From Marsupella aquatica (Eukaryota; Plantae; Marchantiophyta), in contig OZ316893.1 in assembly GCA_973895155.1 (NCBI GenBank), positions 27,414,210-27,478,209 of the forward strand: a DNA stretch of 64,000 nucleotides, in the 5' to 3' direction. Below, piece after piece: positions 20,509 through 53,415 of the stretch; positions within the stretch are counted from its first letter, which is position 1, and every line of letters starts with the position of its first letter. The notes under the pieces are model-generated. The model was not told the origin of the DNA. It made no database searches and was given only the letters and a program-made list of their open reading frames with translations. The position numbers were made by a program, and so were the translations under genes.

Positions 20509-20673
20509 AGTGCCACTAGAAGTGGATGGCCTGCCACTCTAGCTAGACTGGCTATTTAGTTCTACTACTTACCCTGGAGAATCACCTCAGGGAATCACTT
20601 GTCAGATTCTTAGACCACGTGCGAACAAATGAAGGGTATTTAAAATCCTGCCTAATTTAATAATAATTGTAAT

Positions 20674-24080: not shown

Positions 24081-24871
24081 CGGGTCGGCCGGTTTAAAAT
24101 CCTCCCTCCTCACCCAAATATGCAGTACAAAGCGCAGAGCGGGGGTTGCGGTGCCGAGTGCTGGTCAGGAAGAGATCACTCTCTTCCTCTGCATTGTGCA
24201 GAGAGGAGGAAGTTGATGCTTTTGGGCCCGGAGAGTGTTCAGTGCAGCAGGGATTGCATGATCTAAGGGCAGGGGAGGGACGGATAGAGTGACTGTGCAT
24301 TTTTGTGAGTATCGCGCAGGACGAGAAGATTGTGATCCCGCCCTCTAACTAGCATTGTTTGCTGCGGGGCCTGTTTAATAATGTAGAGTTCATAGTCCGC
24401 TTCTCTTCCCTCGTGCGTCGCTCCGATCTCCCCACCCAGAGCAGACGGTGACCTCCTTCCTTGCTGCAGAAGGAGTGTTTCGGTGGCATCTGGAAGGTAA
24501 TACCGTTGAATAGCTTTTGTCTCGTTGGGGAGCCCTCTTTAGTCGGTAGAATTGAACTTCTGGGTTTCTCATCGCATCTCTCGCCCTTTTCGATTCCCAC
24601 TCTTCATTGGACTTTAGTTGTCTACCTGCCTAATTTCCTGTTAATCTTTCTCCCCAAGTTTTGCTGCTCCCCTTGGGTTACACGGGCTCAAAACTTTCTG
24701 GCATATATCGACGGTCACTTGTTCCCTAGGGACTGATTTGTTCTCGCTTGATCCCGATCTCTCTGCTTGGCGGTGGCAGTGGCGGTCCGACCTAATACTC
24801 CGTTGCAATCGATAATTATTCTCTAGAAGCGGACTCGGATCAGTGGATGATTTGTGCAAAGAAGTAGGCTC

Positions 24872-25870
24872 ATGATGATGTTTAAGACAGGACTGGGCAA
24901 TGGAGCAGCATCGTCACACGTCCCGACCATTGTGATCCTGTTTCTGGTGGCGTACTTTTTCGGGAATATGGGAATGCACCTCGTCAGTAATTTCAGCAGC
25001 GCGGGCGGTCAAATTGCTACTACTGAGAAGATGGTAGGACTGGATGAAAAGCCAAGGCAGAAGGGCTGTGACACGATCGAGGATTACATTGAGGATGGCG
25101 ACTACGGCGACAAGTCGACAGAGAATCCGTGGCGGCAGATGAAATGGGGATTGCCTCCGGCGAAATGCCCAGTGAATGGGCACCTGATTGAGATGCTAGA
25201 CCCCACTTACAACTTCCGGCGAGGAGTCGCTCTCCGCTTCACCAGCGATCTGGATGACAAATCCCACATTGAACATTGGTTTCTGGGGACAAAGGTGGAC
25301 CTCAACAAGCGCAAGAGGAGGGTGCTCATTGATCTGGGAGCGAACTTATTCCAAACAAGCGTTGTTTGGTTTAATGAGCGCTACCCGTGCGATTTTACGG
25401 AGGTGCACGCTTTCGAGATGGACCCCAACATGTTTCGACTGCCTACAGGATTCGATGAGGAGAGCAACTCGGTGGATCCCAGCGAGGTGGGCTGGTACAA
25501 GGTCAAGGGCAGAGATGGATACCTTCCGCAGTGGATGATCGATCGTATCCACCCATACAACAAGCTTGTTGGAGTCGCAGACGACGAAAAATCTGTGAAC
25601 ATTACTCGCTTTATCAAGGACGAGCTGAAACTTACCGAGGACGATGCGGTGATTGTAAAAATGGACATCGAGGGGAGCGAGTGGCCCATTTTGAAGCAAT
25701 GGTTGAATGATCCTGACATGCCCAAGATCATCGACGAGCTATGGTTGGAGCTGCATTATTACCATCCCGATAACAACTGGGTAGAAGTGAAAGAGTATTC
25801 CAGAGAAGATGCCACCCGCCTGCTTGCAGAGATGCGCTTCAAGGGCTTCTATGTACACTATTGGGATTAG
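24872..25870 (+). CDS. Type II membrane FkbM/Methyltransf_21-like SAM-dependent methyltransferase, intronless
   Basis: Uninterrupted ORF with an N-terminal TM segment (IVILFLVAYFF) and motifs VLIDLGAN, VHAFE, VIVKMDIEGSEW, IDELWLELHY and a C-terminal GFYVHYWD typical of this plant family. Confidence 0.85.
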   Translation: MMMFKTGLGNGAASSHVPTIVILFLVAYFFGNMGMHLVSNFSSAGGQIATTEKMVGLDEKPRQKGCDTIEDYIEDGDYGDKSTENPWRQMKWGLPPAKCPVNGHLIEMLDPTYNFRRGVALRFTSDLDDKSHIEHWFLGTKVDLNKRKRRVLIDLGANLFQTSVVWFNERYPCDFTEVHAFEMDPNMFRLPTGFDEESNSVDPSEVGWYKVKGRDGYLPQWMIDRIHPYNKLVGVADDEKSVNITRFIKDELKLTEDDAVIVKMDIEGSEWPILKQWLNDPDMPKIIDELWLELHYYHPDNNWVEVKEYSREDATRLLAEMRFKGFYVHYWD

Positions 25871-32290: not shown

Positions 32291-32932
32291 CTATGATGCC
32301 TTTGGTAAAGAGTTGATAAACGCGTTGTACGATGACTCCAGATCAAACAACAACTGGCGGGCTTGTTGCTCGTTAAGTTCATCTGCAGCTCCCATCTTAT
32401 TTAACCTAGCAATCCATTCCCGGCCTTTCACTTTGCCTTCAAAATCGGGCGACAACTGAGGCACCCGACTCAAAGACGACATCAAATCCGAAAGAAGGGG
32501 GTGAACCTGGTCCACAGCCACCATGTTGAGCTTCAAAGAATCCATGGCCGTGATGTAGTGTTGCACACACTCAGCAACCGCAACTGCTGTTCCCGAATCC
32601 GACGACGCGGACTTGTGCTCGACATTGGCTGGAATCCCGGAAACAAGAAGACGATTCAGCGCGGCAGGGCAGTCCATTTTGTACGCCTCCATGAACCTCT
32701 CAACATCGGGGACCGAGTCCCTCAGCGTGGTCTTCAGGGTTCGGAATTGAGCGATGAGCTTTGTGCAAGCGGGCTCATACTCTTTGGCACTGATCACGTC
32801 TCGTACATACGCCTTCTCGAGCTTCTCCGTAGTCTTTATGATGGCGAACAAGTCTGCGAAATTGTCGTACATCTCTCGCTCTCGCTTATCGGCCCATAGC
32901 TTCACCTCTTTCCCGTCCGAATACGCTGCCAT
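32291..32932 (-). CDS. VPS28: ESCRT-I subunit VPS28
   Basis: A 213-aa ORF: EVKLWADKREREMYDNFADLFAIIKTTEKLEKAYVRD...CPAALNRL...FEGKVK..WIARLNKMGAADELNEQQARQLLFDLESSYN. This is the characteristic plant VPS28 sequence, with no coding introns. Confidence 0.97.
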   Translation of the reverse strand: MAAYSDGKEVKLWADKREREMYDNFADLFAIIKTTEKLEKAYVRDVISAKEYEPACTKLIAQFRTLKTTLRDSVPDVERFMEAYKMDCPAALNRLLVSGIPANVEHKSASSDSGTAVAVAECVQHYITAMDSLKLNMVAVDQVHPLLSDLMSSLSRVPQLSPDFEGKVKGREWIARLNKMGAADELNEQQARQLLFDLESSYNAFINSLPKAS

Positions 32933-35737
32933 AATTCCGTCACCTCGAGCACATTCGATATCAAGAACCTGCTGCTGCCGAAATTCAACCTAATACCTTT
33001 CCAACTGCTCGCAGTTCGTCCTCAAATCCGCGATGTGATAATCTCGCCTTTCGTTTGGAGAGTCTCCACTATTCCAACTCCCGACTTGCCGTGCCTCACC
33101 TCACCTCACCTCACCTCGCCTCGCCTTGCTTGCCGATCCACCTAATGATCTCCTTCAGTAGAGCGGAATGTTCCTCCACAAATGGAACCCTAATATCGAA
33201 TTCAGACCAAGCACAGACGGGAAAAAGCAGTGACCGATGCCGACCTGATGAATCTTTCCGCGAGAAGAGAAACCGCAACCCTTGCAACCGAAGTTTGCGA
33301 TGCAACAACGACGAAAAAGTGGTGGTATCAGCTCACCCACCTCCCGAACAGCCTTGCCTTGCTTCGCGCCTCGCCTCGCCTCGCTTGCCGACCTGGTGGA
33401 TATTCACAGGAAAGCTTGAAATCAAAGTTTGCAACGCCACAAAGCTACATGAGAATTGGAGCCCAGGAATTGCGTGACTGTCTTGTAACAACACGTCACC
33501 GTGTGGAAACGGAAACGGAAACGGACGAAGTTTACACACGAAAAATCAGCCTCTTTACTAACTAGTAAGGGTGCTACCAAAGCAAACTAGAGGGCTCCTT
33601 AATTTCTTGTCTAAAGTTAGACTCTACACCATGAATCTTTTGAAATAATGGTGGCCTTGCAAGCGGATGGGGGGACACTGCCTTATATTCGTAAATATTT
33701 TTGTGATTTTTCTCTTTGTATATTTGAGTGCATTAATTCTCCATAATGCACCCCTTGTTTTGAGAAGGCCATGATACAAAGCACCATAAATATAGTAAAA
33801 GTAAAAATTAAATATAGTTTTACCATACAATAATAATAAATAAAATTTAGTCAAAACTTCAAGATGATAACCAAATCTTATATGGTGATACTAAAAAAAT
33901 ATCTATGAATAGAATCTAATATAACTAAAGAATGCATATTTTTGGCCAATTCCATAGCAACCACTTCTTAGATGACTCTTTAATTTGAATTTTTTATTTC
34001 AAGGATTCACTTTTTCTTGTTTGTTACCAAAAAGTCACTCAAGTTTTTACGTACATTAATGTCCTAGTTACGGGTATTATGAAAATAATGCCCTCATTTT
34101 TCAAGGCATTATATCCCACAATGCACTCTAACCAGGACATTATACTATTCATATTACCTTGTAATGAGTGAAACTCCTGCCATTACCTTTATGTATATGT
34201 TTATGGTCATTCCTTCTTCCTTAATGAGGTATTGGGAGAGACAGTATGCCGACCTGCAGGACCGGGGAGGTGTAAGCAAGCCCCCATATCTCATTAAGGA
34301 GGAACAGGGGAACCCTAAATGTACATTAAAGGTAGGGGGCTTTTGAAAACTGGAATCGGCTATTGAAAGAATACACTTGCTAGCCTGTGTGTTCATCTTG
34401 GCCCTTCATTCAGCATTGAATGGGACCACCCAGATCAGGAAGTGGCCGGCACGAGCTTCCGACGTGCCTCCTTCCGCTGCTGTACCCGCGGCCAATCTTG
34501 GCCCTTCGTTCAGGATCTCCCTTCTCGAGGCAGATCCTGGCCCTCCATTCGGGATTGCTTTTCATGATGCCAATCCCGTGGCCAAATCTGGGTCGTCCAT
34601 AGGGCTGCTCTACCCGCGGCCAATCTGGGCCGTCCATTTAGGGCGTTCAATCTGCGGCTAATCTTTGCCCTCCATTTAAAAATGAACGGCCCAGATTTTG
34701 TTTACAGGGCCAGTGGATTCCAGGGCAGGCGTTACTTAGTTTGGGAGAGCAGCAGGATGCGGCCACTTCCCATTTCACTTTCATGAAACGCCATCAAGCT
34801 GGAAGTTTGCGCAGGAGCCATTTTCGTCTCAACCGGATGAGCTTTTTTCTCGCATTGTAGCCTTTCTCCTTCGTGCTCATCGAGAGCTTCAGTTGAGTGG
34901 ATTCACTCCCCTTTGTGAATTGTAGTCGTTCCGTGTTCATTGAGAGCTTGAGTGGATTTGGGACGACTGGCTGTGGTGATTTGGGTGCAGCTGCGAGCTG
35001 CATATCCGGCTGCAAGTTGCAATTCCGGCTGCGAGTTGCATAAAGTGGCCTGGTATAGAGAGGTATAGTACTCTTTGGGTGAAAAGTAAGTACATTAACT
35101 TGGATTTACAAGTACTGTACCTTGTAGGTACAATAGTTTGTGGTTGGAAGCGAAGTAGGTTAACTTGACATACCTTTCTAATTTTAGGCTCTATGTTGAG
35201 GGGCTCTCTATTTAGATAGGGGCTCTCTATTTAGATAAGGACTCTCTGTTTAGGTGACACCTATTGACCTATCTGTTGAGCATAGACGACATTCGCAACG
35301 GCAAGCCCATGAACCATCCAACGCACAAGAGTCGACATAGAGAGATACGTGGTTCACCTCCACATGAGGCTACGTCCACGGGAACACACAAGAACTTTAC
35401 TGCACTCTAGGCCGACAGGCCATACCAAGCATCCACAGCACAAGCTCTCCCTATCTCTCAACTAGCTCCGTAAAAATGAGCCTAAGTTCCACCAGGGTCT
35501 AACACGATTTTGGACTGACCGAGAATCGTTTAGCCCGATTCCATAATATTTTTTTCTAAGGCAATGCAATCTCTGATAAAACTGCCGAAAAGTCAAAAAA
35601 ACATGAGTTGCCTACATTGTATCGCCGCGGGAATGCAGGGAGCGATACGTGCATCGGGTTTTACATTCGGTCTGTGAAAAAGTCCGAACTGCGAGTAACT
35701 TGGTCCACAACCACGTAATCGAGGGTCGACCACGCAC

Positions 35738-35811
35738 TAACCCGGGTTAAGGCGGAAAGTAACCATGGTTAAGGGGGAAAGTTACCATGGTTAGAGCATC
35801 CCCTATATAAA
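35738..35811 (+). promoter_or_regulatory. Putative promoter of element B cargo: three TAACC-NN-GGTTA palindromes plus a TATA box
   Basis: TAACCCGGGTTA at 35738, TAACCATGGTTA at 35760, TTACCATGGTTA at 35782 and TATATAAA at 35804; the layout is mirrored in element A. Confidence 0.55.
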
Positions 35812-36109
35812 GAGGAGCGGGCTGCCCATAAAAAGTTTATTTTCGCCGGAGCAAACAACACCTCACTCAGAGTGAATACTGAACTCCTATCAAGTCTTGC
35901 ATTCCTCCCAAGAGACTTGACTCTTTCTCCAGAGAACCCGATAAATTTATCGGAACTACCATTCCAGTCGAGTATCATCCATGTAAGGTTGACTTGTCAT
36001 TTGGTGTCAATGTCCTGATCCGAGAGGACTGCGATAAATTTATCGCATTCTGCATTCCTCTGTTGCATTCCTTTGATCCAGTGCGCACTCATTCCATAAA
36101 TTATATTCA

Positions 36110-36310
36110 AGGTCCGATAAATTTATCGGAGTATCCATTCTTGTGATTGATTGAAGATTGCTTAGTTGAGACTCCGATAAATTTATCGGAGTATCCATTC
36201 CTGTGATTGATTGAAGATTGCTTGAGACTCCGATAAATTTATCGGAGTTTCCATTCCTGTGATTGATTGAAGATTGCTTGAGACTCCGATAAATTTATCG
36301 GAGTTCCCAT
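36110..36310. repeat. Tandem array (56-60-bp unit, about 3.5 copies), each unit carrying the palindrome CCGATAAATTTATCGG
   Basis: Palindrome cores at 36115, 36175, 36231 and 36287, separated by AGT.TCCATTC.TGTGATTGATTGAAGATTGCTTGAGACT. Confidence 0.95.
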
Positions 36311-36518
36311 TGAGGGAGTCATGTCTTCAAGTGTGTGAGGGAGTCATGTCTTCAAGATGAATGCGAGGTGCGATAAAGTTATCGCACCCTCCTGTGAGAC
36401 TCATCTTCCTATGTTTTGTTTGGAGACTCATCTTCCTCTATGATGTCGCAGTGCTGCAGGGTTTAGGAGGCACAACGAAAGGTCGATTGCACTTGGTGGA
36501 TCAAAGGTATAGTGACAA

Positions 36519-37002
36519 ATGGCTGTCTTAATTCAAAATCATGTCAAACGTGCACGCCGGTTGTACAAGAAACTCGTGCAACGTAAAGTTCTCCCCATTG
36601 GTGTAGGAGCATTGTGGATGGGTGGTACTCATCCCGGAGATAGGCAGAATCCTCTTTGGATTGAGTTCTGCGGAATGAATGGTGCAGGAGTTCCAATCCG
36701 TTCGAGGTTGATGTTAACGGCGTGTCTCCATTCTTTGGAGTTTTCTTGTAACTATTGTTGTCGTCGTCTTGACAACAAGTACCATAAATTGGCATACTTA
36801 TGTTGTCAGATTTGGAACAAGGACCCTTGGGTCAACCTTTCATGATGAGTGTTGCGACCTTCACATTGAGGCACGTTTTGTAAGGACACATTTAAGTAAA
36901 CAAGTCCTACTCATGTGCAGCGAATACAATATGGTCCGAGTCCTAATCTATAAACTGTCGTGCAGGGTTGGTACTGTGGATATCTTTGGTTACACCTGGT
37001 GA
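36519..37002 (+). pseudogene. Orphan Cys-rich cargo ORF(s) of element B
   Basis: A 108-aa ATG ORF with CNYCC/LCC, possibly continuing by frameshift into 36769-37002. No family recognised. Confidence 0.35.
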
Positions 37003-37042
37003 TTGAAAGTACTTTTATTGGTGGTTTTGGTAGCTCTGCTTC

Positions 37043-37453
37043 ATGGCTGCGTCGGAGAACCTAATCGTTGCTAAGATGGCATCCGTATTAGCCCACAAGC
37101 GTAGGAAATATATTCAAGGAAAAGTGCCTAGTGTGGAATGCGGAAGTCTGTTGAATGGACTTCCTGATCAACTCGTTGAATCTCACATTTGGCCTCTCTT
37201 GGCGTTGTCTTGCACACAAGATGAACACCTTGGCCTTGACCTAAAACTTTTACCCGAAGAACGACTGGCTCGAATGAGAACAATCATTTGTCTTGGAGCC
37301 ACCTCGAAGAAATGGAACCATCTTGTTGTTGGTACACAATTTTGGGCTTTACTAAAATATGCAGTCCGTGAGATTAATGACATAAACCAAATGCTCGCAA
37401 GCATTCCTAATGCCGACCTTCTCTCAAACCTACATATTGCTAGGGTCTTCTGA
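37043..37453 (+). CDS. F-box-like cargo protein
   Basis: LLNGLPDQLVESHIWPLL...IICLGATSKKWNHLV matches the plant F-box pattern (LxxLPxxL...L..VSKxW..LV) with an insertion. Confidence 0.55.
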   Translation: MAASENLIVAKMASVLAHKRRKYIQGKVPSVECGSLLNGLPDQLVESHIWPLLALSCTQDEHLGLDLKLLPEERLARMRTIICLGATSKKWNHLVVGTQFWALLKYAVREINDINQMLASIPNADLLSNLHIARVF

Positions 37454-37920
37454 GAGGAAACTCATTTCCTCACTCCCATAGATATGCTTGGGTGCTTCTT
37501 GTATGACCGATTAGATGCGTTTCTTAGAGTTTGGGTGAATCTTGGAGAAAGCGGGAAGCGGACAATTCTTGCATGGCATGGACAAGTCTGAGTGGATGAG
37601 GCATTGCTGCGAACATCCGATAAATTTATCGCACTCCTCATTCCTCTGGTCGATTTAGTAATCAATTGTTTTGGGTGCTCTAAGGTTTGCTCGAGAAGAG
37701 CTTGTAAAAAAACACTTGAATGTAAATGACCCTGCCTCGCCTGACTTTGGGTTGTGTGGTCCAGAGTGTAGTTTTTTGCGCCTCTACGGATGATTAGCTC
37801 ACAAGTGCATTGGCTTCACAGCCTGTTATACAAGGTACTATAAAGTTGAATGAAACTTGTAGAATTGTAATGAGTATGTTCTCCAAAATGTATTCCTGAT
37901 TTCTATTTGCTGATCAGGTC

Positions 37921-38643
37921 ATGCTTTAGCGACGCATTTTTGTACCCTTCGTGGATCCTCCAGAATGGGGGAATGGCGCCCTGATGGACCAGCTAAGGAA
38001 GCTGGATGAATCACTAATTTTAAAGATTTTCAAGCTGGTAGCAAAACCATTTTATAATAACGCATATCACTTCTACGTAGACTAGGTAGGGGGAGAAATT
38101 TATATCCGGTGGGATAGATATGCTGCATTTTCTAGAAGTATTATCTTGCTTTTTCTTAAAACCGGTGCAGTAAAACGTTTTATATTGCATTGCTATCATG
38201 TTGTGAAGGGCAATCCTGCCTATGAACCAGAATTCTATGCCCACAACAGACATAGAGCATTCGATGAGATTCGGGATGTGATTGACCAGCTGGACAATCC
38301 TCTTGCTACCGAGTTTTTGATTGACACTGGTGGGAAGTTATATTCGTACAGGACTCGTCAACTCCCCCCTAGGCCTCTTTGTCCGTTATTTAGGTTAACT
38401 TATGTATCTTGTTTATGGACAAATGTCCTTGACAATGGTGAGATGTGTCAGTGTTGCACAAATGCCTGTTGTGACGTTTTGTCACGCCGTTATTCAGTAG
38501 CTGTAGTTAATCCTGAGACCGGTGCCACAAATTTTCATTGGCTGTGGGCCTATGATCATAGGATCACTCATATACCCCAATGGCCCAAGAAGCTAATCTC
38601 TCGCTTTGCTGTAGCGCGGTTTGATCTTGGGTGGGATGATTGA
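37921..38643 (+). pseudogene. Orphan cargo ORF, Cys-rich C-terminal part, possible second F-box-like start
   Basis: The open frame 38146-38643 contains CQCCTNACC. An upstream disrupted frame from ATG 37921 contains LRKLDESLILKIFKLV. Confidence 0.4.
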
Positions 38644-38981
38644 TTAGGCACATTATCACATGTACACTCGGTCATCAATTTAAAGAAGGCTCACTTTTTG
38701 TTTGGACCACTTTTGCGATAATTTTATCGGTGTTGGTCTCATTTTCAGATGTTGACACGTACAATAATGTAATCTCGGCCGTCAATTTATATCGTGCTCA
38801 TATTTGTTTGCGATAATTTTATCGGAGTTGGTATCGCTCGTGGAATGACCTAATGCTTGTACGTGAATGAGGACTTTCTGAGTTCATTGTATCGATGTTT
38901 GCATGCCGGTTTTTGGTTCTTGGGTTTGTCAAAGCGATAAATTTATCGCTCCTTGCATTCAAATTTGCAAACTTTGTCATC

Positions 38982-41900
38982 ATGGGTCCTAGTGGGAAGA
39001 GTGGATCTGCCGAGGCTGAAAGTCTCATGACAAGCCTCACGAACGCGATTTGGACAAGCGAAGACATTTGTGAAGAGGTCAAGTTCACCAAGAAACCGTG
39101 GTACTTCCGCGACGCCAGGTTACAATCCAAGGATATGGCAAACTGTGAGTCTCCTATCCTTTGGGTCCAGATGCAAAAATCCGCAAAGGTTACTCTCTCG
39201 TTTGGCCCCATTGTTGGTGTGGCGATCTGTGAGTACTTGATTAACCGGGGAGAGGCAAAAGTGTTGAAAGAGGGTCTGAGTCTCTTGACAATGTGTGGAG
39301 GCAAGGGATTCACCTCTGTCATTGTCACCATGGAGAACTTTCTTGAGAAATCCCTTGAGAGTTACCCTGAAGATGCGCTTGTCGCGGAAGTTAGGTTAGC
39401 AAAAGTAATGAATCTTATGGGCCCAACTTGGGTGTGCCAGTTTGTCCAAGATTGTGATCTCATCATGCTACCAAGGGTGAACGCAGAGTACAAGAGGCTC
39501 ACAGGTGAAGAATTCAGACCCATCCGGAAAATAGTTATTAAGAGGCCTGGTTCTAACGGCAGTGGATCTTCATCGGCAAAAAGCGCTGGAGGTACGGCTT
39601 TGGACGAGCCCAAAAGTGGTTCGGGGAAGGGAAGTGGCAGGGGAAAGGGAGAGGGAGAGGGAACATCAGGGAAGATGTTGCTGGTCCCTCCAAGGGCGGG
39701 AGAAGGGGCAGCGGCAATCATCAAGGTCGTGCAACCGGTGCAAGTTTAGGCGTTTCGGAAGCGCCTTACATAAATGTAAGCGAGAGTAGAGGATCTGAGG
39801 GATCGGGGCCATCTGGTTCTGGAGTCAGCGTTAAGAGAAAGAGAACAGGTTGGAGTTTATCCACAGCCCCGGAAGGAGTGGAAGCCCTGATCGATATGGA
39901 GCCTCCGGTGCTTGATGAGCGTTTGCCTCGTTCAGATATACAAGCTGAGGTTCGATCGGTAAGTGCTACCAAACTTTGATTTTCTATTGATGAAAGAGGA
40001 TTCCGATAAAAATCTCACTGTTTCTTTCGTAATCTAATTTCAAACGGCATTTTCTAGATTGATGAAGAGGAGGAGACTGCTCTTTCGATGTATGAGACTG
40101 ACGCCATCAAAGCAGAGCTCAGTCTGCTGATGCAGCGAAGGGTTCAAAGGACAACTGTCCTCTTGCATGTCGACAATTTAATTTTTGATGAAGCTGGAGA
40201 GAAGTCAACTTTGATCAGACCAGTGGACAAATTGCATGTGGAGAATATCAAGATTCTTCTAAGGAAAAACCCCACTAACTTCAGCGCACCGTTTGTGCTG
40301 TGTGTGGATCCGAAGGATTGTCCCACAATTGAGGATTGGGACATTCTAAAGTCCAGAGTATGGAAGTATAGAATTATTGGAGGAAATCATGGTGCTCGGG
40401 CAAAGGCCGAGTTGTATAAAATGTATGGGAAGTAGATTTATGGTGAGCTCAAAGCTTGGGTATACGCAGGACTTACCAAGTCGGAGGTCCGGAAGTTGGG
40501 CTTCTAGCACAATTATGACCAGGAGTATAGGAAGAACATGACTTATATCGATAGAGTTCGTGCGTGCCACAATATCTTTGTTGAAATGGATGTAGGATCA
40601 AACAAGGATGTTCGCAAAGCTTGTTGTCAGGAATGTATGCTGCAATACACTCCCGGTGTTCGTGATAGCATGGCCAAACATGACCCAACATTCCAGATTG
40701 CTTTTCAAACGGGTGAAATTTGGGATCTTCAGGAGAAAGTTTTCCAGATGTGGGAGAAGGGGACTGTCTTGGGACAACCCAAAAAGATCATGGCAACAAC
40801 AAATGCAAAGGGAAAGGTTAAACCTTTAACGCTGAAAGAGATTAAAATGAATAAACTTGCAGGTGACCTCAATTTAAATACTTTTTGAGGTCTTCAAGGA
40901 CAGTCAACTAAGGAGCATGTTAAGCGGCTCTTGAATAGGGTCATTGGGAAAGTGATCACCTTGGATCAAATGCACAAGGAAGGGGAAAAACTGAAAAAAC
41001 TTTCCAAGGTGAAGAAATTATTCTTGCAGATATCTGGGCAGCCCGACTGGGCAACGTGCAGAGAAATGTTTCCAAATGAGACGGATGTTTCCGTCCTGGG
41101 AACATGGGCAGAGAAGTTGAGCAAAGCGGTAAGCACCCGTCTCTCCCCGAGATTTTTATCGGCCTTGCCATTCCATTAGTAGATTTTTGCATTCCTCGTT
41201 CCATTCAAAAATCATCGCAAGATTTTTATCGGCCTTGCCATTCCATTAGTACATTTTTGCATAACTCGTTATATTCCCGAGATTTTTAACAGCTTTCGTA
41301 TTCGTTAAGTGATTTCATTCTGATTGGAATTCTGTGCGACCTTTGTTACAGCTGAAGATTGGGTCGAAGCGGAAAAATAAAGTTGTTCCGCCTGTGCAAT
41401 ATAATTCGGCAGGGGAGGTTATTGTTCCCTCCGCTGACATCCCGTATGTGTTCAAGAATTTTGTGCTTGCTGCAATTGATCGGTACAACCGGCTCCAGGC
41501 GCTAGGCGAGGACGCACGAGAAGCCGCGGAGCAAATATGGAAAAATGCTGACGGAGATTCTTTCTCTTACTATCTCCATGTTGGGGATGTTCAAATTTTG
41601 GATTCTTTTGTGGAGGCAAAACCTTACACTCTTGCCGTCGCCGACATTCCGTATGGTTTTAATGCGCCTGGTTCGGAGTTTGATGAAGTGTCCTTCACGG
41701 AAAAGGACGTTGTAGATATGGTGAGAAGTTTTTCAAACATGACAGCTTCGAAGCAGTGGAGGTTTGTTGTGATCCATTCATTACAACAAACAAATATGGT
41801 CATGTCTACGCTTGAGATTGTGTGCAACTGTGGGGTTGAGTCTGGAATTTGGGAGAAGACCAACATTCATGAGCGTCCCGTCGGTGCTCGATTGGCGTGG

Positions 41901-42456
41901 GGTTTTGAAAACTGGTTGATGGGATTCTACAACGAGGAAGGCATCCGGAACATGAACATGTACAATTTCCAACCGGATGAGCTCGCATCAATATCATCAA
42001 GGTTCCATGTGTAACCAAAAAGTTTGTTGATCCGTTGGGCTATGTTGTGAACCCGTACCAAAAGCCTGTTGGTTTGGGTGCTTGGTTCGTTACTCATTTC
42101 TCGGAAAAAATGATTGGGTTATGAATCTTTGCTGCGGAACCGGATCCATGTTAGCTGCAGCTCTTCTCAATTCTCGCCAGGGTTGTGCGGTCGATAAAAG
42201 TGCTGCATAGATTGATTTTGTGAGACATCGGATTATGACTCTAGAGTCAAACTGGAATTTATATGATGAAGCACAGATTGAAGGGCAAGGCGACGAAGGT
42301 TTAGATATTCAACCACCAATTGGAGGCCAATTGGGAACATTGGGGACTTTCACTTTCACTGTTGAAGTCGTGAAGGAGGTCGAGAATGAAGAAGAAGCCG
42401 AAGAACCTCCCAGAATGCCTAATGAGGATGATCTCAATGACATGTTACTGGATTAG
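38982..42456 (+). pseudogene. Three-exon fusion gene: unknown N-terminal domain, ParB/Srx-like domain, and beta-class N6-adenine/N4-cytosine DNA methyltransferase
   Basis: Exons are 38982-39958, 40058-41128 and 41352-42456 (GT-AG, phase 0). ParB-like motifs: RPVD..HVENIK..L, APFVLCV, YRIIGGNHGARA (GGNH at 40379-40390), AWVYAGLT.SEVRKLG..HN. MTase motifs in beta order: LHVGDV, DIPY (41643-41654), IWEK, NPYQKP (42050-42067), WVMNLCCGTGS (42130-42147), AVD. There are several TAG/TGA stops and about 3 frameshifts. Confidence 0.88.
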
Positions 42457-42903
42457 GAAATTGTTATCTGGTTGTATGATAGTTAGGTTAGTTTAGGTTA
42501 TGTTAGATTATGTCAGTCCCACTTCTCAATATTCGGAGAATGGAGTGTGATAAATTTATCGCAATTACGTTTGAACCTGATAAATTTATCGGACATTACA
42601 TTCTACTCCCTTGTTTGTCACGGTGTTCTAGCTGGGGACTTATCGGACTTTGCATTCCACGCTCTAGCTATTCCACTCCCTTATTTGTCACGATGTTCTA
42701 GCTGGGGGAATGGAGTTGTCGATAATATTATTGGACTTTGCATTCCACGCTCTAGCTAGTTAGTCATTACAATCAATTCAAAAAAAGATATAATTATAGC
42801 TTCGGAGAACAACATACTTAGTCCCAGATGTTCACGACTGCGACCATCCTCATGGGAATGATAACCAGCTTAACGATAACCATTATAACTTAAAACCTTT
42901 ACA

Positions 42904-45900
42904 CTAGCTTCTACTATCAACGACTATAGTGTCCATCATTGCATTTTGAATGATTCGTCTTGTTTGTACAGGGAGAGTACTATTTGCCAATAACGCAAAG
43001 TTATACGCATAAACTGCAATTTCTGCTAGGGACAGTCTCGGGGGTCTCACTATATGGGGACCTCCCCATCGCCTGCGACGTTTTTAGGCCTCGGACTCCC
43101 TAAAATGTAAGAAAAAAATTATTTTTTAACCCCTATAAAGTTGGAATATTCTTGGAATATTCTAAAAATTGGATTAAAAAGACCCTAATATTCTTATAAG
43201 TCTCAAAATTGAATTTAAAAGACCCTATTGTTCTTCTACAAAAATTCTTAAGTTTTCCCTTAGAACCAATAAAATAACCCTATCCTTCGTCGCACGTGAT
43301 ATGCCATTTTTGTGGAAGTGAAACCCCCGAGGGGACAGTTCATCCTCCAGTACTTTGTTAGATGAAGCCTCTTTCTCCAGATAATATCTGCCTTCAATTG
43401 CAGACTCCTCTTCTGAATCCATTGCATACCAAGTGATTTTAATTCGCTCGGGGATGTCGTTAATTTTTGTGAGAATCTCAGTCACTTTTGCCATCCAGAA
43501 TGGTCTTCCCTTTGGATCTTGATGGGCTGCTACACATATCATTGCAAATTTAGTATTCACCTCTAGATCCTTGAAGTCTCCAATTTCCATGACTTTTCTT
43601 CGACTTCCGGAATACATGACTGTCCTCACACCCGCTATTTTATCAACCAAGATAGGTTCCATTGCTGCTTCCGTAGGATTGGTCGTAGGTTCTCTTTGTA
43701 CGTTTACTTTGGTCCAACTCCAATCAAAACTCCATTGTGCAGGTTTCAGGTGGTGCTGAATCACTTATTTTTGTTTGTCAAAAAACCGACCCCACCATAG
43801 CCGATCTTCGTCGTCAAAGTAATTGAATCCATCTTCAATTGCTCTTCGATACTTTTGAAGAGTCAAAAAATGATTTTACGCCGCTCGCTCGTCTTGTTCC
43901 TCAGTATCATTCTCTTGATCATCATTGTCTCCTGTCGCTCCCGTGGCCGACTTCAATGCCATTTGTGGTGCGACCCACATTCCAGATGAAGGAATGTACC
44001 AAACAAATTCCACGGGCTCCCCCCAATCTGTTGTCGTGGAAAGATGTTTGGCATCGAAGACAGACCGAGCACTCCCATCTTCGAGTACTCTGGTAATCCG
44101 AAATTGTTTCTAAGCACTTATGCCGTGGAGAGTATGCAAAACTTGACCATCCATATCCTTATCATTTGCTTGATCCTTGTCAGACACAAATTTTTTGAAA
44201 TCGGCAACCTCATCGACAAAAAATATTTTTTCCGTAGGATTGTAGGATTCCTCTATGATTGCGGAAAGAGTGTCCAATCGAAAAGCTTTTTGCTTGTTCA
44301 ATTTTGAAGAAAACTTGCTAAACATTTGATCAATTTGGTCATGGGTGTGCCCAACCAATAGAAAACCAACCTTTATTTTTGGAAAACACCTATCTCCACC
44401 AACATGTTCAAATATGCCATAAGATATTTATTCTTGTTTTCCCGAGCAGTGTTATCAAGCTGGAGGTAAAGCACTGGAGGGAGTGGACCTTCCTAGGTAT
44501 TCAGAATATGCTGAATAACGTGGATGGTCAGGTTGCTATCATTGTGAATATTTGGATAGTTCAAAAAAACATTTGAACTCAATTGTTTGTTGAAGATCAA
44601 ACAACCCACTACATGTACAGGGATGAAATACTTCTCATCCATATTCTTTGGACACCGAATGAAATGAGGTAACTTTGTCTTCTTTTGATCCATTCCATCA
44701 ATACAGATGCCCAAATATTTCTCCGGACTCTTGTAACATTTGCTCCGGTGCTTTGCTAACTTCTTCCTCTCCACTGCTTGTGCCTTTCGATGTTCGTTTA
44801 GCAATGTTGAGAATTTTCCTACAATAATAAAAACGTTTAGAACTTTGCTGGCCTGACAACGATAAATTTATCGGGTTCAGTATTCAAACACTTGATTTGA
44901 TAACCATAATGTTAAACCGTGACAGCGATAAATTTATCGGGATAAGTATTCAAACAATATATTAACACATTACCAAAGAAGAAGCATGGGAATACTCAAC
45001 CCGATAAAATTATCGGGGATAAGTATTCAAACTGTTCAAACGATATATTCACACACATTACCAAAGAAGAAGCATGGGAATACTCAACCCGATATAATTC
45101 TCGGGAGTAACACACGGGTTTAGAAACTTACTCTTTTCTGCTTCGAGTGTTGCCTTATCACGAAGTGCTTTGAATTCAGTACACGGGGCGCAGGTGGAGA
45201 AACAACTCCTTTTGGGGATGCGCACGCGAGGAAACTCCTTGTTCCAAATGTGAACAAACCACGAATATGTCACGCCTTGTTCTTGGCGCATTAGAGTTTC
45301 AGACTGGAAGGCGTCAAAAACTTCTATTTTTGTCCAATTGTCAGGTAAATGAAAGATATCCTTGTTGGGGAGACTCTCTACATTTGTGGTAAAAAAATCA
45401 TCCAGCCACTGAACAAGACCAAGATGTGCGGTTGATTTTTCTCTACAAAATGTATTGATCTGTATCCGAGAAAACATGTTCTTCGAGATTTTTTGGAGAT
45501 GATTATTTCCTAGGGAAAATAATTTCTTAAAACCACTCCGACAAAAGGATCTACCGCTAACTGAGTAACCACTTGCACCGGCATGCCCACCCTTCACACA
45601 TCCTCTTAGAAGTACGTTCTTCTCTTGGTAGGATAGCCCATAGTAATATGTGCGTTGTTTCGTCACATCCTGCAGACCCAAATTCCCTAGACAAAAATTG
45701 TCACAACATGGATACTTATAAATTTCTTTCATTTTGTTTCTATTCAATTTATCATTTATCACATTGTCTTTCCTAGTAATTCGGTCTCTATCTTTTTTAC
45801 TAGGCTCATTTGACTTCTCTATAGACTGAAATCCGATGAGAACATTGGCATTTTCCTCTCCTTCAAGTACCTCGCGAATAGATGCATCACTCTCTGCTGA

Positions 45901-46861
45901 GCTACCATCCTCCACAGATCTCCTCGACGCATTTAGAGGGGCACTGAAAAGGAGACTAAAACTATTCCCTTCTACATCTCCTTCTAAACATTCAGACACA
46001 ACTTGTGCTATGATATCAGATTCTCTATCTCCTTCCTGATCTTCGTCCTTTGATCCACTCGACTCATCTGAAAACACAATTGGACTCCGTGGCTCTCTAT
46101 ACATAACCCGAACACCACTAAGACCTCTCCTCGACACTTGGAGCCTAGAACCAATCACAGTCCGCCCTGGAGAACTTGGAGAATCTGGAACTCTGAACGG
46201 TGAACTATTCACACGTGTAGTCCCAACAACTTCGCGAGCTGCAGGAAAATTGAGCACTTGTTGACCACGATTCCCATGGACCATTCGGGAAAGGGCCGAG
46301 TCTGGACTTCGCAATCCAATTCCCTCGGTTGCTCGCACGTCCAGTCCAGGAAATGAGACCGATCGTCGTATCAGTCTTTGTATTTCTACCTCCTGATTCT
46401 CACCCGGAGACTAAAAGATCCGTCGTTGAACGTGTGTTGAATGTGGCGACTTAAATGCTGAGTGCGATACGCGTATCGGTCGCCGGATACCCTCTCCATA
46501 ACCCGGGATGGATGGCCTGAAGCGACGTCTCGGACCTAAACCTGGGATTGTAATTTTCTCATTCCTTGGTGATGGAACGCTCAAGAGACGACGCTTCTCA
46601 GGTTTACTAGGCGACACAGTAAGAACTGGGCTCAGGACCAAAACTTGCATCAGAATCTAAATCAGCGTCAGAAAATTCGGGCACTATCTGCTGTGAGAGA
46701 GGTAGAGCTTTAAGTATGCGACTTGGCAAACAGCGAGCGACAACATTAGGAGAGGATTCAACTGAACTTGAAGGTGAATCTGTGTCTGATTGAGACATGG
46801 CTATCCGAGACACTATGGGGCTTTGCATTCCTCCCTCAATCAGGGAAAACGAATGGCTCAA
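42904..46861 (-). pseudogene. Sola-like DDD transposase with a C-terminal beta-barrel-like domain
   Basis: A Ser/Arg-rich N-terminus, Cys clusters (CCDNFC, FSTCAPC) and an in-frame spliced intron 45131-44819 (EAEK/RKFSTLLNEH). Catalytic motifs are IDGMDQ, LYLQLDNTARENKN and VGHTHDQIDQMFS. There are stops at 46411 and 44493, frameshifts, and a MITE in the last ~45 codons; removing the MITE restores ...EDELSLAEIAVYAYNF...DSRS* ending at 42904. The superfamily call rests on the motifs plus the 4-bp TSD. Confidence 0.85.
43037..43331 (+). mobile_element. MITE copy 4, inserted in the transposase gene
   Basis: TIRs match 14/15; 8-bp TSD GGGACAGT at 43029-43036 and 43332-43339. Confidence 0.95.
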
Positions 46862-48094
46862 CCGACAAAATGTTGCTCCAAGAACACAACTCCCGAAACT
46901 CTACTCTGGATAATGATGCCAAAAACTTATCGGCGGTGACCCTTTTATAGTGTCTGTTGAGGGGTTGGCCCACGTGGCCACTTTTGATTGGCCGTCTCGC
47001 TAAACGACAAAATAGCAGAGAAGGGTATATTTCTTGGATGTCCAATTTGATTCTTACACGTGCATCGTGGAGAAATTATGTAGTTTTGAAATTTAAGCGA
47101 TAAATCTATCTCATGTTGGTATTGCAAAAAGTGTTTCCTTCATATGGAAAGTTGCAATTTTGAAATTGCAGCGATAAATTTACCTGATGCTGGTATTGCA
47201 AAAATTGTTTTCTTAATATGGATAGTTGCAATTTTGAAATTTAACCGATGAACTGAAGGATCTTAGTATTGTCGGCAAGTATTTTTGCCGTTCGGAGTTG
47301 CCGCGATAATTTTATCGGACTGCGCATTGTTGTTGAGACAACGGCATGTTGACTATGCATGTATGTGGTTACTATGGTCAATTGCGGAGGTAACTGCAAG
47401 GTAAGTTTGACAAACTGTGCGGTAATTTCTTATCGACTGTGATGTAAAATAGTTACGGTAAATAACCAAAAACTGGGGAAATTGAGATTCGGTTGGAACT
47501 TTCATGGTTGAAATTTGAAGTCCAATACAGGTATCGAACTTTGTTTGAAAAGTGGATATGGATTTCTAGATAAGAGTTTCATATATCTTCGGAGAGCGTG
47601 AATATGAGGTTCTGGCGAACGTTTCTCGGATCTAATTTTTCCTTGATAAATTGAATGTTTGTGACTATTAATTTCAGTGGTTCGGACCATTCCTGAATTT
47701 CCTGATTCAATCCGAACTCCGATACATATTACATTATTTCCCCAAAAACCTGTTTTTGATAAAAAAAACCACCGATTTCGTGAGATTCGGCGGAAAATGA
47801 AAACACACTTCTCGTTTGCGGAAATAGTTCTCGTTTGGTCGGAAATCGTGTTGTCTAGCATAGCCCTGGCTATATGCACAACAACACTACCGCTAACATT
47901 AGCTAAGTCCTAACCGAGTTAGACTAACTGTAGTTAGCTTATGAGTCACAAGACTAGAGCAATATCTAACACTATCAACCATAAGCACTCGAATATATTT
48001 AAACAGTACTAGAAATATAAACTACAATGCATCAATAGATTGAATGTGTCCTAAGTAGTTGTCTGCTTGAGTTTGCAGAATTGGACCTTATCGT

Positions 48095-48429
48095 CTCGGG
48101 GGTTTCATTTTCACAATTTAAATGGTGCTTCACATGCAAAGAATGATATGATCATTTTATTGCTTCTAAGAGAAGACTTAAGAATTTTCTCAGAAGAATA
48201 ATGTAGTCTTTTAAATTCAATTTTGAGACTTACAAGTACATTATATAGGGTCTTTTGAATCAATGGTACATTAGGTACTGAGTCGACCAAAAAAGAAAAG
48301 AAGAAAAAAAGTAATGAGTTGATGATGGTACTTTCAAGGGGTCAATTTTTTTAACATTTTAGGGGGTCCAAGGCCTAAAAACATTGCAGGTGATGGGGAG
48401 GCCCCCATATAGTGATCGAGACCCCCAAG
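48095..48429 (-). mobile_element. MITE copy 5
   Basis: CTCGGGGGTTTCA...ACCCCCAAG; TSD CTTATCGT / CTTATCAT (7/8). Confidence 0.85.
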
Positions 48430-50663
48430 CTTATCATGGAATTCTAATGAAAAGAAGGAGTATTATTAGGCTATTAATAACATATACCATAAAAAACTTA
48501 AATTAAGAATAGAGGAATAAGATAAGGTATCATAATAGAAATAGAAACTAAGGAATTGAATCAATTGAAGGGGTCAAAAGAAATTACTAAATTCAGGAAA
48601 AAAACAAAGTAAAAGCATAGAATAGACCACATTTACATAAGAATATGTATTAAACAAACAAGTTTACTTACAGGACAAGCTAACCAAAGTGTGTACAACC
48701 ATTATAACAGCATCAAAAAAATTCTTGTCATTTGAAAATGTCACTCCCGTATTTACTCTATCATGAGGTAAATGTTTTTGGCACGATTAGATATTACATC
48801 ATGTGATATGGGATATCCTTTTCGTTTGAATATTTCACTGGGCTACTTCCCCTATCACCTGGCAAGTTCCTTTACCTTAGTTTCTTTCCCTGCACATGGA
48901 TTGACTCACAAACAACATTATCGAGTATATAACAGATCTCACTTGGCTCAAGGAATGTCCAAGGGATTAGTAGTAGCTGGTATAGTTTTCATTAATCTAA
49001 CGTAAATTTTCAAGGAATTCCAAGCGTACCCTGTAGCTTCTTTCGTAAACTTCTCATGCAGATTTAGTATTGTGCCAAGTTTATTCTCTCCTCCCATGTT
49101 TTCCTGACATCAGTGGACCCAAAGGAACAACTACTCCCTGATGCAACTGACCCATGATTGACATCAGGAGAAGACTTAGTTCCAAACGTCGTGGGATTCA
49201 TCAGTAGGCATAACAAGCACCATTTACATTTCTTATCTTAGGTTCGTCATCATCGCTGGAAGTGTCGAGCCGGCCTGGTGGTACGTAGGACTAAGTCATT
49301 TTGTGATAATTTAAAAATATTGGGATTGACACCAAGTTCTGGTGTTGCATCAGTACTCAGTGGAGAAGACTCAGTACTCGCGTAGCATCGAATTGAACGC
49401 ATAGTGCGGTAAGTATATGTAACTAAATGCTTGCCAATAGAGGGCGGTAACACTTGAAGTTGGGGTCGTCGGTTCCAGGAATCACCGTCCTGAATTAAGG
49501 TGCGCACCCGGAAGCCTGTAGCGGAAGTTTCTTGCGTCCATCTTAAGTAGCCTCAGAGCTCATAAAGATTATGCCTCTTCTGCATGAGGTTCCCGGTAGC
49601 CGGCCATTGCTCAAAGGTGTATCGCAGTTCAATCGTCGTAGTTCACGAGTTAGATACTTTGCAATATCACGATTTCCAGGGGGTTTTTGAACACCCCAGT
49701 TCTGTCATTTAGCTTCGCCCTACTGATGACATGCGTTTTGTGAAGCCTTGCTTATGACATTAAGTTTGAGGTTCACAAGGCAGGCCTACAGTATAACAAC
49801 CTCAAGGATTGAAGCTCGTTGAGAAGATCGGCAGTCTCATGTTCCAAAAACTGCTCATGTGCATGCAGACATCTATATAGATGTGCAACCGAACTGTGCC
49901 GACAGACTGCTTGGAGGAGATGAGACAGCTTCAAGATCCTTTCATTATCAAGGAAGAGCCTCAAGAATCATCGGCTAAAGTTACGTACAGCATCATGCCC
50001 TCCATGCACTGTACTGCATTTTTACATCGCAACACAATTTCTATTTCATTTCAAGATTGAGGATCTGAAACGTTTACGTTGGCTAGATCTATGTTTGATT
50101 TACATATTTTATCATATGAAGTATCTATGTATGCATGAATTCTGCCCCTCAAATCTATTCTCATAGGATGAATCGCTCCGTACGTACAACATCCTAAATT
50201 TGTCGATATACATACTACCCAAGAATCAAGAATATCAATTCGGTAGACAAGCCTCAAGCAGATCTAACTGCGTAGAGACTATCTAAATCAAACAAGACAT
50301 TTCCCGGCGCGCGTGAAAAAAATGGTCGCTCGTACTAGATATCATTTGTTCTCTCTTCAATTCTCCATAATGACTGCAGTTGTTTGGACGAAGTCTCTTC
50401 ACTCGTTATCTTCGAAGCTTTCCTCTTTTACCCTTCAAGTAGCAATCACCTTATTATTACTGTATTGCCTTGCTGATGGTGCATATGAATAACGACTTCC
50501 AAGAAGTTCCAAGCCGAGCGGAACGGTGTCGGAGCAGTTCACATATTACGCGGTCCTTCCAACTTTGAATTAAAACTGCCTGGTTTCTGAAATATATTTT
50601 GGGTAACAACTCGTTCCACTGAAGTCTCTGCCTCCATCAAGAAATTCTGAAGTTTCAAATAAA

Positions 50664-53415
50664 ATGGCGTCTGCTCAATACTCGTTACTCTTTGCGTTCG
50701 CAAGATTCGTTTTGTCCATTTTGCTGCTCACTCGGGTTGATGCCCAAAATCGGCGCTGGGAAGTTCAGGCCCTTGTGAGTTTCAAAGCTGCAACCAGCAC
50801 GACGGCATTCGATTCCGTAGGTTATTGGATCAACTTGAGCGAGAACGACGAAAACACGTGCAATTGGATAGGAGTGACTTGCGCAGCAAATTCGACTGTC
50901 TGTGGAACAGCTTGATCTATCGGGTTGGGGACTAGAGTTATATGTGGGACTGGACGCATTGTCCTGCCTCACAGATCTTCGTTACTTGGATCTGTCATCA
51001 AATAACTATGGGGCTGCATCAATTTACGTCGAATTTCCAGGGGGCCAGTCGCTGGATTTCTTTTATTAACATTCTGCCCACTCTGAGCAGTTTGACTGGG
51101 CTCATACGAAGTGAAAAAAATGGTCGCTCATACTAGATATCTTTCCAACAACTGCCTCGAAGGTAAGATACCAGAAAACATTTCCAGTTGCACGAGATTA
51201 CGGTAGATATCTCTCGCTGATAATAACCTCACCGGTGAAGTCCCCAGTCTGCGTGCATTGGGGATCTTGCAGGTTCTCCTTGCGAAAAATCAGCTTTCAT
51301 CTCCGCTTTCAGGCCAGTTTCAAACTTACCACAACTCCGGGACCTGAAGCTTGATAATAACATGTTCACGGATTTTGAAGGACCTCAGTTCCCGGCGGGT
51401 GCGGATAGTCTGCAGCACCGTCGGTCTCGGCGAATCAGCCTACTGGTGCGATTCCTTCCGGCATAATGAACCTGAGGGATCTCAAGTATCTTGATATGTC
51501 CCGCAATCAATTGTCACGGTCAATCCTCCTGGATTTACTGGACAAATTAATACCTCCCTTTCATTGGACCTGTCTCAAAAATCAGCTGACTGGCAGCATC
51601 GCTCCTGAGTTTCTGCAGCTTGGACAGTTAAGAAATAGTGCTGCTCTAAATTTGTCACATAACCTTCTTAGCGGTAGCTTACTGCCTTTTGTAACCCTCC
51701 TGGTTGACTAGTGTGGACCTAAGTTTCAACAACCTAAGCGGAAGCTTGCCCGCTAGTTACATAGCCAACACCATCCTATTGTGGCTTCAGCAACTCAGGA
51801 GACCTATCAAGACTGGTGAATTTCAAAAACGACGTAATTTGGGTTCTTCAAGTCCTCGACCTGAGCAACAACAATCTTCGAATGAGTACCACGGAAGACA
51901 ATCCTGATCCATTGAGAGCATTCCTAGAACTTTTCGTGCATTCCTAGAACTGTTCGTGCATTCGCATTTTTCTATAGCATTGACAGAGTGTCGGATGGGG
52001 GCCAACAATTTCTCAGGAGCCTCTTTACCTGCAAGCTTGGCATGAGCAGCAGTCTCCTTCACTTGGATTTGAGCAACAGTCACTTGAATGGGGAGATATC
52101 GAGTGCGGCGTTGAATACCACGTGGTTTCCTTGGCTCCAACCCCTAAACTTGTCTGACAATGATTTAACTGGACCTGTTCCTGATACCATCGCTATCCTT
52201 CCAAATCTTACAAGTCTCGATGTCACCAACAATAAACTTTCTGGGCAACTACCATTCATACACCAAACAGTGTGCTGAGCTACAATCCGAGATTCTTTCT
52301 GGGCAATCGTAGACTATGCGGTGATCCCTTGCCTCCTTGTCAAGGGACAGCTGGTGTACGGTGGTGGGCGTTTTTCCTCGTAGTCAGCGGATCTGTAATA
52401 ACAGTTTTGGGTAGTTGTTTGGCTGTTCAAAGCATTGTTAGAACAGGAATCCGCGTCACTCATGTCCCTTCGGAAGCTGAGAAAAGCCACAGACAATTTT
52501 TCTAAACGTGCACAAATAGGAGAAGGAGGCTTTGGCGCCGTATACAAAGGTGAATTGGAGGATGGAACGGTGGTGGCCATCAAGAGGAGCAAGCGCAATG
52601 ATTCCCAAAAGACAAGGAACGGTTGTTTAATGAGGTGAAAATCTTGTCATAATTGAACCACCGTTGTCTTGTAAAGCTGTTGGGTTGTTGTATGGAGAAT
52701 AAGACTGCCTTGCTTGTCTTCGAATTTGTGTCGAATGGCACACTTCAAGAACATCGTCAAGGGAAGATCGGGAGGGCGTTTGAGTTGGACGCAACGACTT
52801 GACATTGCGGTCCATATTGCTGAAGCTTTGCACTTCCTTCATTCAACTTTCAAAACTCCCATCTACCACAGGGATGTCAAGTCCGCCAATAATCTCTTAG
52901 ATGAGGACCTTAATGCAAAAGTGGCGGATTTTGGAATCTCAAAGTGGGCTCCCATTAAAGCTACACACGTATCGACCATTGCAGTACGAGGCACCATGGG
53001 GTACATAGATCCTCAGTACTTTGCCTGCTGCCAGCTTACTGAAAAAAGTGACGTACGTGTATGGCTTTGGTGTGGTTCTACTAGAGCTTATATCCGCCAA
53101 ACCCCCGATAGACTTTGTCAGAAGTGGTGTGAAGACGCAAGTTTAGTGATTTTTGCAAAGCCGGAGATAGAGAAGGGAGATCTGAACGAATTGATCGATC
53201 CTGCTCTTAGAGAGACGTACACTGACCCGGGTGGTCATGGTAGGGACTCGATCTTGAATGTGGGAAGGTTGGCTTTGAAATGTTTGAACATGCAATCCAA
53301 AGCCAGACCAAATATGAGTGACGTTGGGAGAGAGTTGGAAAACCTGCGGTTCGCGCTGGGCAGCAAATCGGAGTGCGTGGGCTCTGTCGATGAAGATGGG
53401 AGTGATGTTGATTAG
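50664..53415 (+). pseudogene. LRR receptor-like kinase pseudogene
   Basis: Signal peptide, LRRNT CNWIGVTC, multiple LxxLDLSxNxLSG repeats, GNRRLCG cap, TM segment, and kinase motifs IGEGGFGAVYKG, VAIKR, HRDVKS, DFG, GTMGYIDP. It is broken by many stops and frameshifts, and no introns are evident. Confidence 0.92.

Follow-up and report, generated by a model that had tools for sequence, protein, structure and literature searches.

The described system closest to the one reported here is Sola1-1_Ec32, a transposon of the brown alga Ectocarpus that spans 21.5 kb, with AACCG termini, a 4-bp target-site duplication (TSD) and 282-bp terminal inverted repeats (TIRs). On the opposite strand it encodes a 1104-residue protein that combines a ParB-like domain with an N4/N6 methylase and is suggested by the authors to bind, and to modify, the very element that encodes it (PMC12477816). 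In the red alga Bostrychia, the Plavaka accessory genes PAG2 and PAG3 supply a PF01555 methylase and a ParB-like domain (bioRxiv 2025.02.11.637652). Here I analyse a 64,000-nucleotide stretch of the Marsupella aquatica genome (Marchantiophyta; contig OZ316893.1, positions 27,414,210 to 27,478,209 of the forward strand; hereafter the window), which contains a 12.35-kb transposon with a transposase gene and, facing it, a spliced accessory gene for a ParB-like and methyltransferase fusion. An earlier interpretation made from the DNA letters (the sequence-only reading) was aware of no description of this architecture; the Ectocarpus element provides one. The architecture is already known; what is added here is its membership in land plants, evidence that the accessory gene forms a core module, and a DNA site made of two parts.

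The element is what remains of a large Sola1-type cut-and-paste transposon in a land plant; this copy is dead. It begins with AACACGATTT at 35501 and ends with AAATCGTGTT at 47852, and a second copy of the long terminal repeat (LTR) in which it sits, 94–96% identical, holds a single GTCT at 9529–9532. The precise boundaries, TIRs, 4-bp TSD and empty site claimed by the sequence-only reading were all found, the TIRs being imperfect. While TIRs and a 4-bp TSD are as in Sola1, the AWWT target preference that is a hallmark of that group (PMC3845634) is absent from the two sites available, GTCT here and an AAAG flank at a second, diverged element at the start of the window, hence the label Sola1-type. 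Sola1-1_Ec32 is itself listed with a target bias other than AWWT (PMC12477816).

A Sola-like transposase converging on a three-exon gene had also been claimed, and both genes were found as such. The window translation of the minus-strand gene matches PF25273 (DUF7869) in Pfam with an E-value of 4e-23. I take DUF7869 to be the Sola1 transposase domain, and the motifs DGMDQ, LQLDN and GHTH to be marks of Sola1. This gene carries at least four stops (44495, 44112, 43878 and 43767) and a frameshift near 44370, and its tail, near the 3′ end, is interrupted by a nested miniature inverted-repeat transposable element (MITE). The accessory gene has GT-AG introns in phase 0 and contains the motifs IGGNHGARA, HN, DIPY, NPYQKP and LCCGTGS as originally noted. 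It has four internal stops and three frameshifts in total, from which it follows that the window copy is dead; indeed, both of its genes are.

Pfam found no ParB or methylase match in the window's own exon pieces, where the piece with motif I is translated in the wrong frame, so the domain assignments rest on intact homologues with 53–80% identity. With clustering at 50%, 171 relatives were found for exon 2. P0004, at 53% identity the nearest one that is intact, was modeled with a predicted local distance difference test score (pLDDT) of 90, and the model possesses the ParB/Srx nucleotide-binding fold: Foldseek aligned it to ParB, Spo0J, Noc and KorB over ∼280 columns with E-values of 3e-6 to 8e-3, and VIA matched it to PadC, KorB, SerK and Srx with Z scores of 8.3–10.6 (PadC, Z 10.6, root-mean-square deviation 3.2, 99 residues aligned; KorB, Z 9.4, deviation 6.1, 194 aligned). 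The ParB likeness is visible in folds only, as the exon-2 profile matched no PDB sequence, and the 25 families listed, of the 81 matched by 100 exon-2 homologues, include none of ParB type. Residues of the ParB pocket are conserved in the aligned relatives (R in 85/90, G in 110/119, H in 111/118, and the HN pair in 105/120 and 117/121).

For exon 3, three relatives were found among 781 candidates, at 55–60% identity, and 29 by a second search. The homologues P0001, P0002 and P0003 all exceed the Pfam cut-off for PF01555. The model of a further homologue, P0156 (pLDDT 88), has CcrM as its best fold match (E 1.7e-13), and the profile of the exon-3 relatives also matches CcrM (E 1.3e-11). The fold is shared with RsrI and MboII, and further fold matches include the N4-cytosine enzymes PvuII and rotifer N4CMT. 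Motif IV precedes motif I, the permuted order of beta-class enzymes, and its first residue is D in 49 of 50 aligned rows (DIPY 21, DFPY 7, DFPC 6, DVPY 5, DAPY 3, DPPY 3, DLPY 2, three others), an S-type motif IV being the mark of N4-cytosine enzymes (PMC4738411). The D-type motif together with the CcrM match favours N6-methyladenine (6mA) as the product. The ParB and amino-methyltransferase fusion predicted by the sequence-only reading, for which profile and structure comparisons had been suggested, is thus supported by models of intact homologues, with ParB identified by Foldseek and VIA on P0004 and the methylase by both Pfam and fold.

The element also possesses a repeated DNA site of composite structure, AAT-N8-CGA-N8-TCG-N8-ATT, with a family-specific core. 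This core is CGATAAATTTATCG in the window element, CGATACNNGTATCG in the second window family, and CGAGACNNGTCTCG or CGATCCAAACATCG in other elements. Allowing up to two mismatches, CGATAAATTTATCG has 19 matches in the window, all inside the element, for 0.17 expected, while the generic composite pattern has 22, all in the two elements, for 0.36 expected. The generic pattern is also found in six of seven related loci (L001–L007, all from one metagenome assembly). Non-coding DNA holds 23/23 window cores (at up to three mismatches) and 59/60 locus cores, when coding sequence makes up 64% and 72% of the DNA respectively. In 103 of 182 half-sites the AAT precedes the CGA by exactly 11 bp, no other offset accounting for more than 8 and the background being ∼2%; this peak is present in all eight elements, and at least one arm is found at 78 of the 91 sites. 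The core patterns were chosen after seeing the data; the flanks with the AAT arm were not part of them. The bases between arm and core vary, with ∼43 distinct spacers, and varied spacers at a fixed distance are as expected if a protein touches the DNA at two points along the same helical face.

The site was not read as an RNA hairpin, since most window sites are one-armed, the spacers vary, and the sites keep one orientation in introns that are transcribed in opposite directions; some L001 sites, though, are fully palindromic. Composite sites also separate the three upstream open reading frames (ORFs A–C, 36492–38645) from one another, and the transposase intron of one locus (L006:2582-2700), which holds a composite site, is in frame and stop-free. 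Neither the repeated palindrome, nor ORFs A–C, nor the second window family figures in the sequence-only reading.

The sequence-only reading held that the accessory gene is spliced and maintained as a core module of a plant transposon family. The first two parts are supported. The intron between exons 2 and 3 is at one position in the window gene and L001–L005, and a convergent transposase lies beside the accessory gene in three of the seven loci (L002, L005 and L006); the other four end 305–506 bp past the stop codon, approximately the length of the intergenic gap (323–476 bp), and are therefore uninformative on this linkage. Over six pairs, the identity of the transposases rises and falls with that of the methylases (54/54, 51/52, 51/50, 72/78, 81/84 and 71/71), and between the two window families the proportion of nonsynonymous differences (pN) is 0.14, against a saturated synonymous proportion (pS). 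Exon 1 is 48% identical to that of the second window element, and 29–33% to those of L001 and L003. This evidence supports a core module over a one-off capture.

Restriction to a plant transposon family was not upheld, as relatives occur in streptophytes, animals and an amoebozoan. Those named include Chara, Riccia, Adiantum, Ginkgo, several animals and Clastostelium; Ectocarpus is not among the names of the 30 relatives looked up. PF01555 is also matched by 9 of the 64 longer exon-2 relatives scanned (of 150 listed), 8 of them above the cut-off. In a FastTree phylogeny (80 sequences, 193 columns, midpoint root; 95 of 170 rows, the shorter ones, left out), both window families group with L001, L003 and L005 (support 1.0), in a clade nested within that of all named streptophyte sequences (0.95) and apart from the animal ones. 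No methylase relative was found in IMG/VR or GTDB contigs, and no transposase relative in IMG/VR. A tblastn search of phages with the methylase part gave weak matches only (93 records, all below 60% identity and none covering 80%), and one with the ParB part gave no match among 50,697 phage records. On the strength of these searches and the tree topology, I reject a recent origin from bacteria or phages. The spread of relatives, with no close prokaryotic or phage one found in these searches, argues that the accessory gene belongs to an old eukaryotic family of transposon accessory genes and is not a recent capture.

Some relatives (P0033, P0048 from Haliotis, and P0150 from Mercenaria) have the ParB-like domain joined to SAM or Tudor-like domains and not to a methylase; P0048 is conserved across four abalone species and may be domesticated. 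An ESM Atlas feature search with P0004 ranked fungal DUF3723 (PF12520) clusters first (0.95, 167–173 of 256 features), which suggests, from feature similarity, that DUF3723 may be a ParB-like domain. DUF3723 is linked to Starship elements. Of the papers from 2020 on that a literature search listed, none contains the two terms together.

Combining site and protein, I propose that the ParB-like helical domain recognises the palindromic core while the methylase works on the AAT arm, and put the probability of this at roughly one half. The helical domain would bind, presumably as a dimer, the family-specific palindromes in the introns and spacers of its own element, and the methylase is predicted to be active, writing 6mA on the arm adenine one helical turn from the core. 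This would probably serve to keep the element active: the mark, or mere occupancy, would keep it out of host silencing by 5-methylcytosine (5mC), as VANC does for VANDAL. The CpG observed/expected ratio is 0.81–0.86 in the window element and L001–L006, against 0.34 in the neighbouring Copia sequence. A CTP (cytidine triphosphate)-driven sliding clamp is no part of the proposal. It is tempting to extend this to an old land-plant and charophyte transposon lineage with a private 6mA system, where a ParB-derived dimer reads the family-specific 14-bp centre, the methylase marks the AAT one turn away, and each family stamps its own copies and so escapes 5mC, the ParB-like domain perhaps being fungal DUF3723; this extended version is tentative, and should be considered less than probable.

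Several observations weigh against the proposal. The generic pattern was not found in L007, a distant locus (40% identity), and one generic match (46454–46478) lies in sequence counted as transposase coding. The 91 sites are not independent, given the tandem copies, the relatedness of the elements, the limited set of distinct spacers and the single metagenome assembly of origin of the loci. The putative recognition helix is nearly the same across families with different cores, with no co-variation evident by eye in five sequences, and isolated DNA-binding domains match the helix-turn-helix region weakly (Z 3.6–4.8, with KorB at 4.8), when the whole-chain KorB match spans 194 residues. CpG is depleted in the second window element (0.52) and L007 (0.54), and the contrast with Copia is confounded by age and element class. 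Motif IV is mostly DIPY, DVPY or DFPY and not DPPY (canonical form compared, [DNSH]PP[YFW]), and some animal members have no motif IV. Finally, the box II GxxR arginine, which is required for nucleotide binding in tested ParB folds, is mostly missing (S 54, T 20, G 11, N 8, L 8 and C 6 of 118, with the register set by motif and not by superposition). This makes CTP-clamp behaviour of the ParB-like domain doubtful; there is a precedent in a phage ParB that can dispense with its nucleoside triphosphate residues when it activates a DNA-modifying partner (PMC13229309).

Transposases themselves can also bind clustered motifs and activate cognate copies. The composite sites may thus be bound by the transposase, for synapsis or self-activation, with the ParB-methylase a co-inherited passenger whose target is different or non-specific. 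Sites do crowd the region near the left end, the AtMu1 transposase suffices to activate cognate copies, and the core, transposase and accessory gene co-diverge, so that they are inseparable with the present loci. However, sites are also found in introns 5–9 kb from the ends, and a 14-bp palindrome suits a ParB/KorB-type domain. Furthermore, inverted-repeat arrays follow the ParB gene onto the red-algal Plavaka elements, that is, onto another transposase superfamily, which favours ParB as the binder, and transposase binding is in my view unlikely. It is also conceivable, if somewhat unlikely, that the ParB-like domain does bind the sites but that the outcome is N4-methylcytosine on the core CG, or no mark, with regulation by occupancy similar to that of KorB or VANC and the AAT arm serving as a second contact only. 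The invariant bases of the core are CG dinucleotides, N4-cytosine enzymes figure among the fold matches, motif IV is non-canonical, and some relatives have other C-terminal domains or eroded motifs. Against this, the best matches are 6mA enzymes, and both motif I and the D-type motif IV persist, with open reading frames, across families diverged by 50–80%.

The remaining alternatives have less in their favour than the proposed self-binding and self-methylation. Broad methylation of host DNA, or an addiction-type module involving the upstream ORFs, with sites that merely autoregulate the genes, would give a role to three otherwise unexplained ORFs, and a beta-class enzyme does methylate the Marchantia sperm genome broadly; but ORFs A–C have no tblastn match in the second window family, nor any nuclease or toxin family match in the family searches, and this is very unlikely. 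That this copy captured a bacterial or host gene in a single event, a view that could be entertained because a single full-length element was examined, is contradicted by the second window family, the three loci of identical layout, the co-divergence, the purifying selection, the 171 relatives and the published precedent, to the point of being negligible.

The Ectocarpus and Bostrychia papers propose self-binding and self-modification and, in the text at hand, define no site and offer no test. Here eight elements together define the site, whose centre varies and whose AAT arm does not. This tells which DNA a binding assay should contain and which adenine should be inspected, and makes the proposed self-methylation directly testable. 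As the main multicellular lineages are held to have lost 6mA (10.64898/2026.05.21.726589), a land-plant writer confined to transposons would, if true, be a specific and checkable exception, namely a real, localised 6mA writer in multicellular plants. In addition, a two-module enzyme with a family-specific address could serve as a targeting tool.

Table 1. Features of the window, in window coordinates. The element comes first, followed by the second family and host-type ORFs.
Feature	Position	Strand	Remarks
DNA transposon	35501–47852		Imperfect TIRs, GTCT TSD, empty site at 9529
Left TSD	35497–35500	+	GTCT; element sits in Copia-type LTR copy
Left imperfect TIR	35501–35531	+	AACAC terminus; 23/31 bases complementary to right end
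Left array	35632–36384		8 sites, core CGATAAATTTATCG with AAT/ATT arm; several in 56–93 bp tandem units
ORF A	36492–36863	+	Broken; no family match
ORF B	37040–37591	+	One stop; sub-threshold F-box-like match, E 0.067
Cores in spacers between ORFs	37618–38948		Four, at 37618, 38716, 38811 and 38935
ORF C	37930–38645	+	One stop; Cys cluster near end; no family match
Exon 1	38982–39958	+	Conserved N-terminal domain of no known family and low-complexity linker; frameshift near 39747
Exon 2	40058–41128	+	ParB/Srx-fold domain and ParB/KorB-like helical DNA-binding region (predicted); stops at 40433, 40505 and 40886
Intron 2	41129–41351	+	Degenerate tandem composite sites (41148 and copies)
Exon 3	41352–42456	+	Beta-class amino-methyltransferase (DIPY ... 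NPYQKP ... xLCCGTGS) and acidic tail; frameshifts near 41990 and 42103, stop at 42208
Cores in gap between convergent genes	42548–42733		Three
DUF7869 (Sola1-type) transposase gene	42904–46798	-	Start codon and 5′ part inferred; intron ∼44819–45131
Nested 295-bp MITE	43037–43331		CTCGGGGG termini, 8-bp duplication GGGACAGT
Cores in transposase intron	44860–45103		Four
Cores towards right end	46919–47328		Four, partly degenerate
Right imperfect TIR	47822–47852	-
Right TSD	47853–47856	+	GTCT
Second diverged family	1–3992	-	AACAT terminus at 3992; exon 1, intron, exon 2 (76% amino-acid identity); own core CGATACNNGTATCG
FkbM-like methyltransferase ORF	24851–25870	+	Host-type
VPS28 ORF	32291–32932	-	Intronless; host-type
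Protein kinase ORF	52675–53415	+	Host-type
ABA/WDS-like repeat protein ORF	60448–61020	+	Host-type; sub-threshold match

Each of the two Sola1-type elements lies within or next to LTR-retrotransposon sequence, with Copia-type pol and LTR copies at 3993–9657 (minus strand) and at 35274–35500 with 47853–47979. Judged by the Copia pol and by the host-type ORFs (VPS28, the kinase and the sub-threshold ABA/WDS match), the window is DNA of a land plant. The second family, cut by the window start, adjoins the former, and its upstream content differs from that of the 35501–47852 element. The nested MITE belongs to a family of ∼300 bp with CTCGGGGG termini, presumably hAT-like, with five copies in the window (the others at ∼20178–20522, 20673–20970, 22444–22727 and 48094–48433) and an 8-bp TSD at the single copy checked.

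Among known systems, VANDAL and VANC of Arabidopsis offer a parallel in manner of working only, in that tandem amplification has filled introns, spacers and ends of the element with family-specific motifs. They differ in their Mutator transposase, and VANC, an unrelated protein that lacks a methylase domain, recognises a non-palindromic motif of 9 bp and brings about 5mC loss (PMC5735166). No VANC homology on a Mutator-type element was seen in the window; a DUF7869 transposase and ParB and methylase folds are present instead. ParB/parS, KorB and Noc share the ParB/Srx fold, followed in the window family by a probable helical DNA-binding region, and palindromic sites spread over the replicon, and fusions of ParB to PF01555 are common in phages (bioRxiv 2025.10.10.680097). 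In contrast to these, the window family mostly lacks the GxxR arginine, has no ParA, and its gene is spliced. Marchantia DN4MT1, rotifer N4CMT and DAM-carrying retrotransposons are likewise bacterial-type amino-methyltransferases in eukaryotes; however, DN4MT1 has a TSPPY motif and the term ‘ParB’ does not occur in its preprint, N4CMT is a distant fold match only, and the DAM elements are retrotransposons. The family is not described in the text consulted of PMC4738411 and 10.64898/2026.05.21.726589, and the literature searched contains no published land-plant member or bipartite site; Repbase and Dfam, outside this search, may already annotate plant members. The Bostrychia genes resemble the accessory gene in that tandem inverted repeats adjoin the ParB gene, but they accompany an EnSpm/Plavaka transposase and are two genes, one fusing ParB to a 2-oxoglutarate (2OG) oxygenase, the other the methylase to SET. 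The main text of PMC12477816 does not contain the string ‘palindrom’ and describes no internal site. Compared by description, Sola1-1_Ec32 and the window element share several features: while host (a brown alga), length (21.5 kb) and TIR (282 bp) differ, both are giant Sola1-type elements with an AAC-type terminus (AACCG there, AACAC here) and a 4-bp TSD, and both carry a ParB-like domain and a methylase in one gene opposite the transposase.

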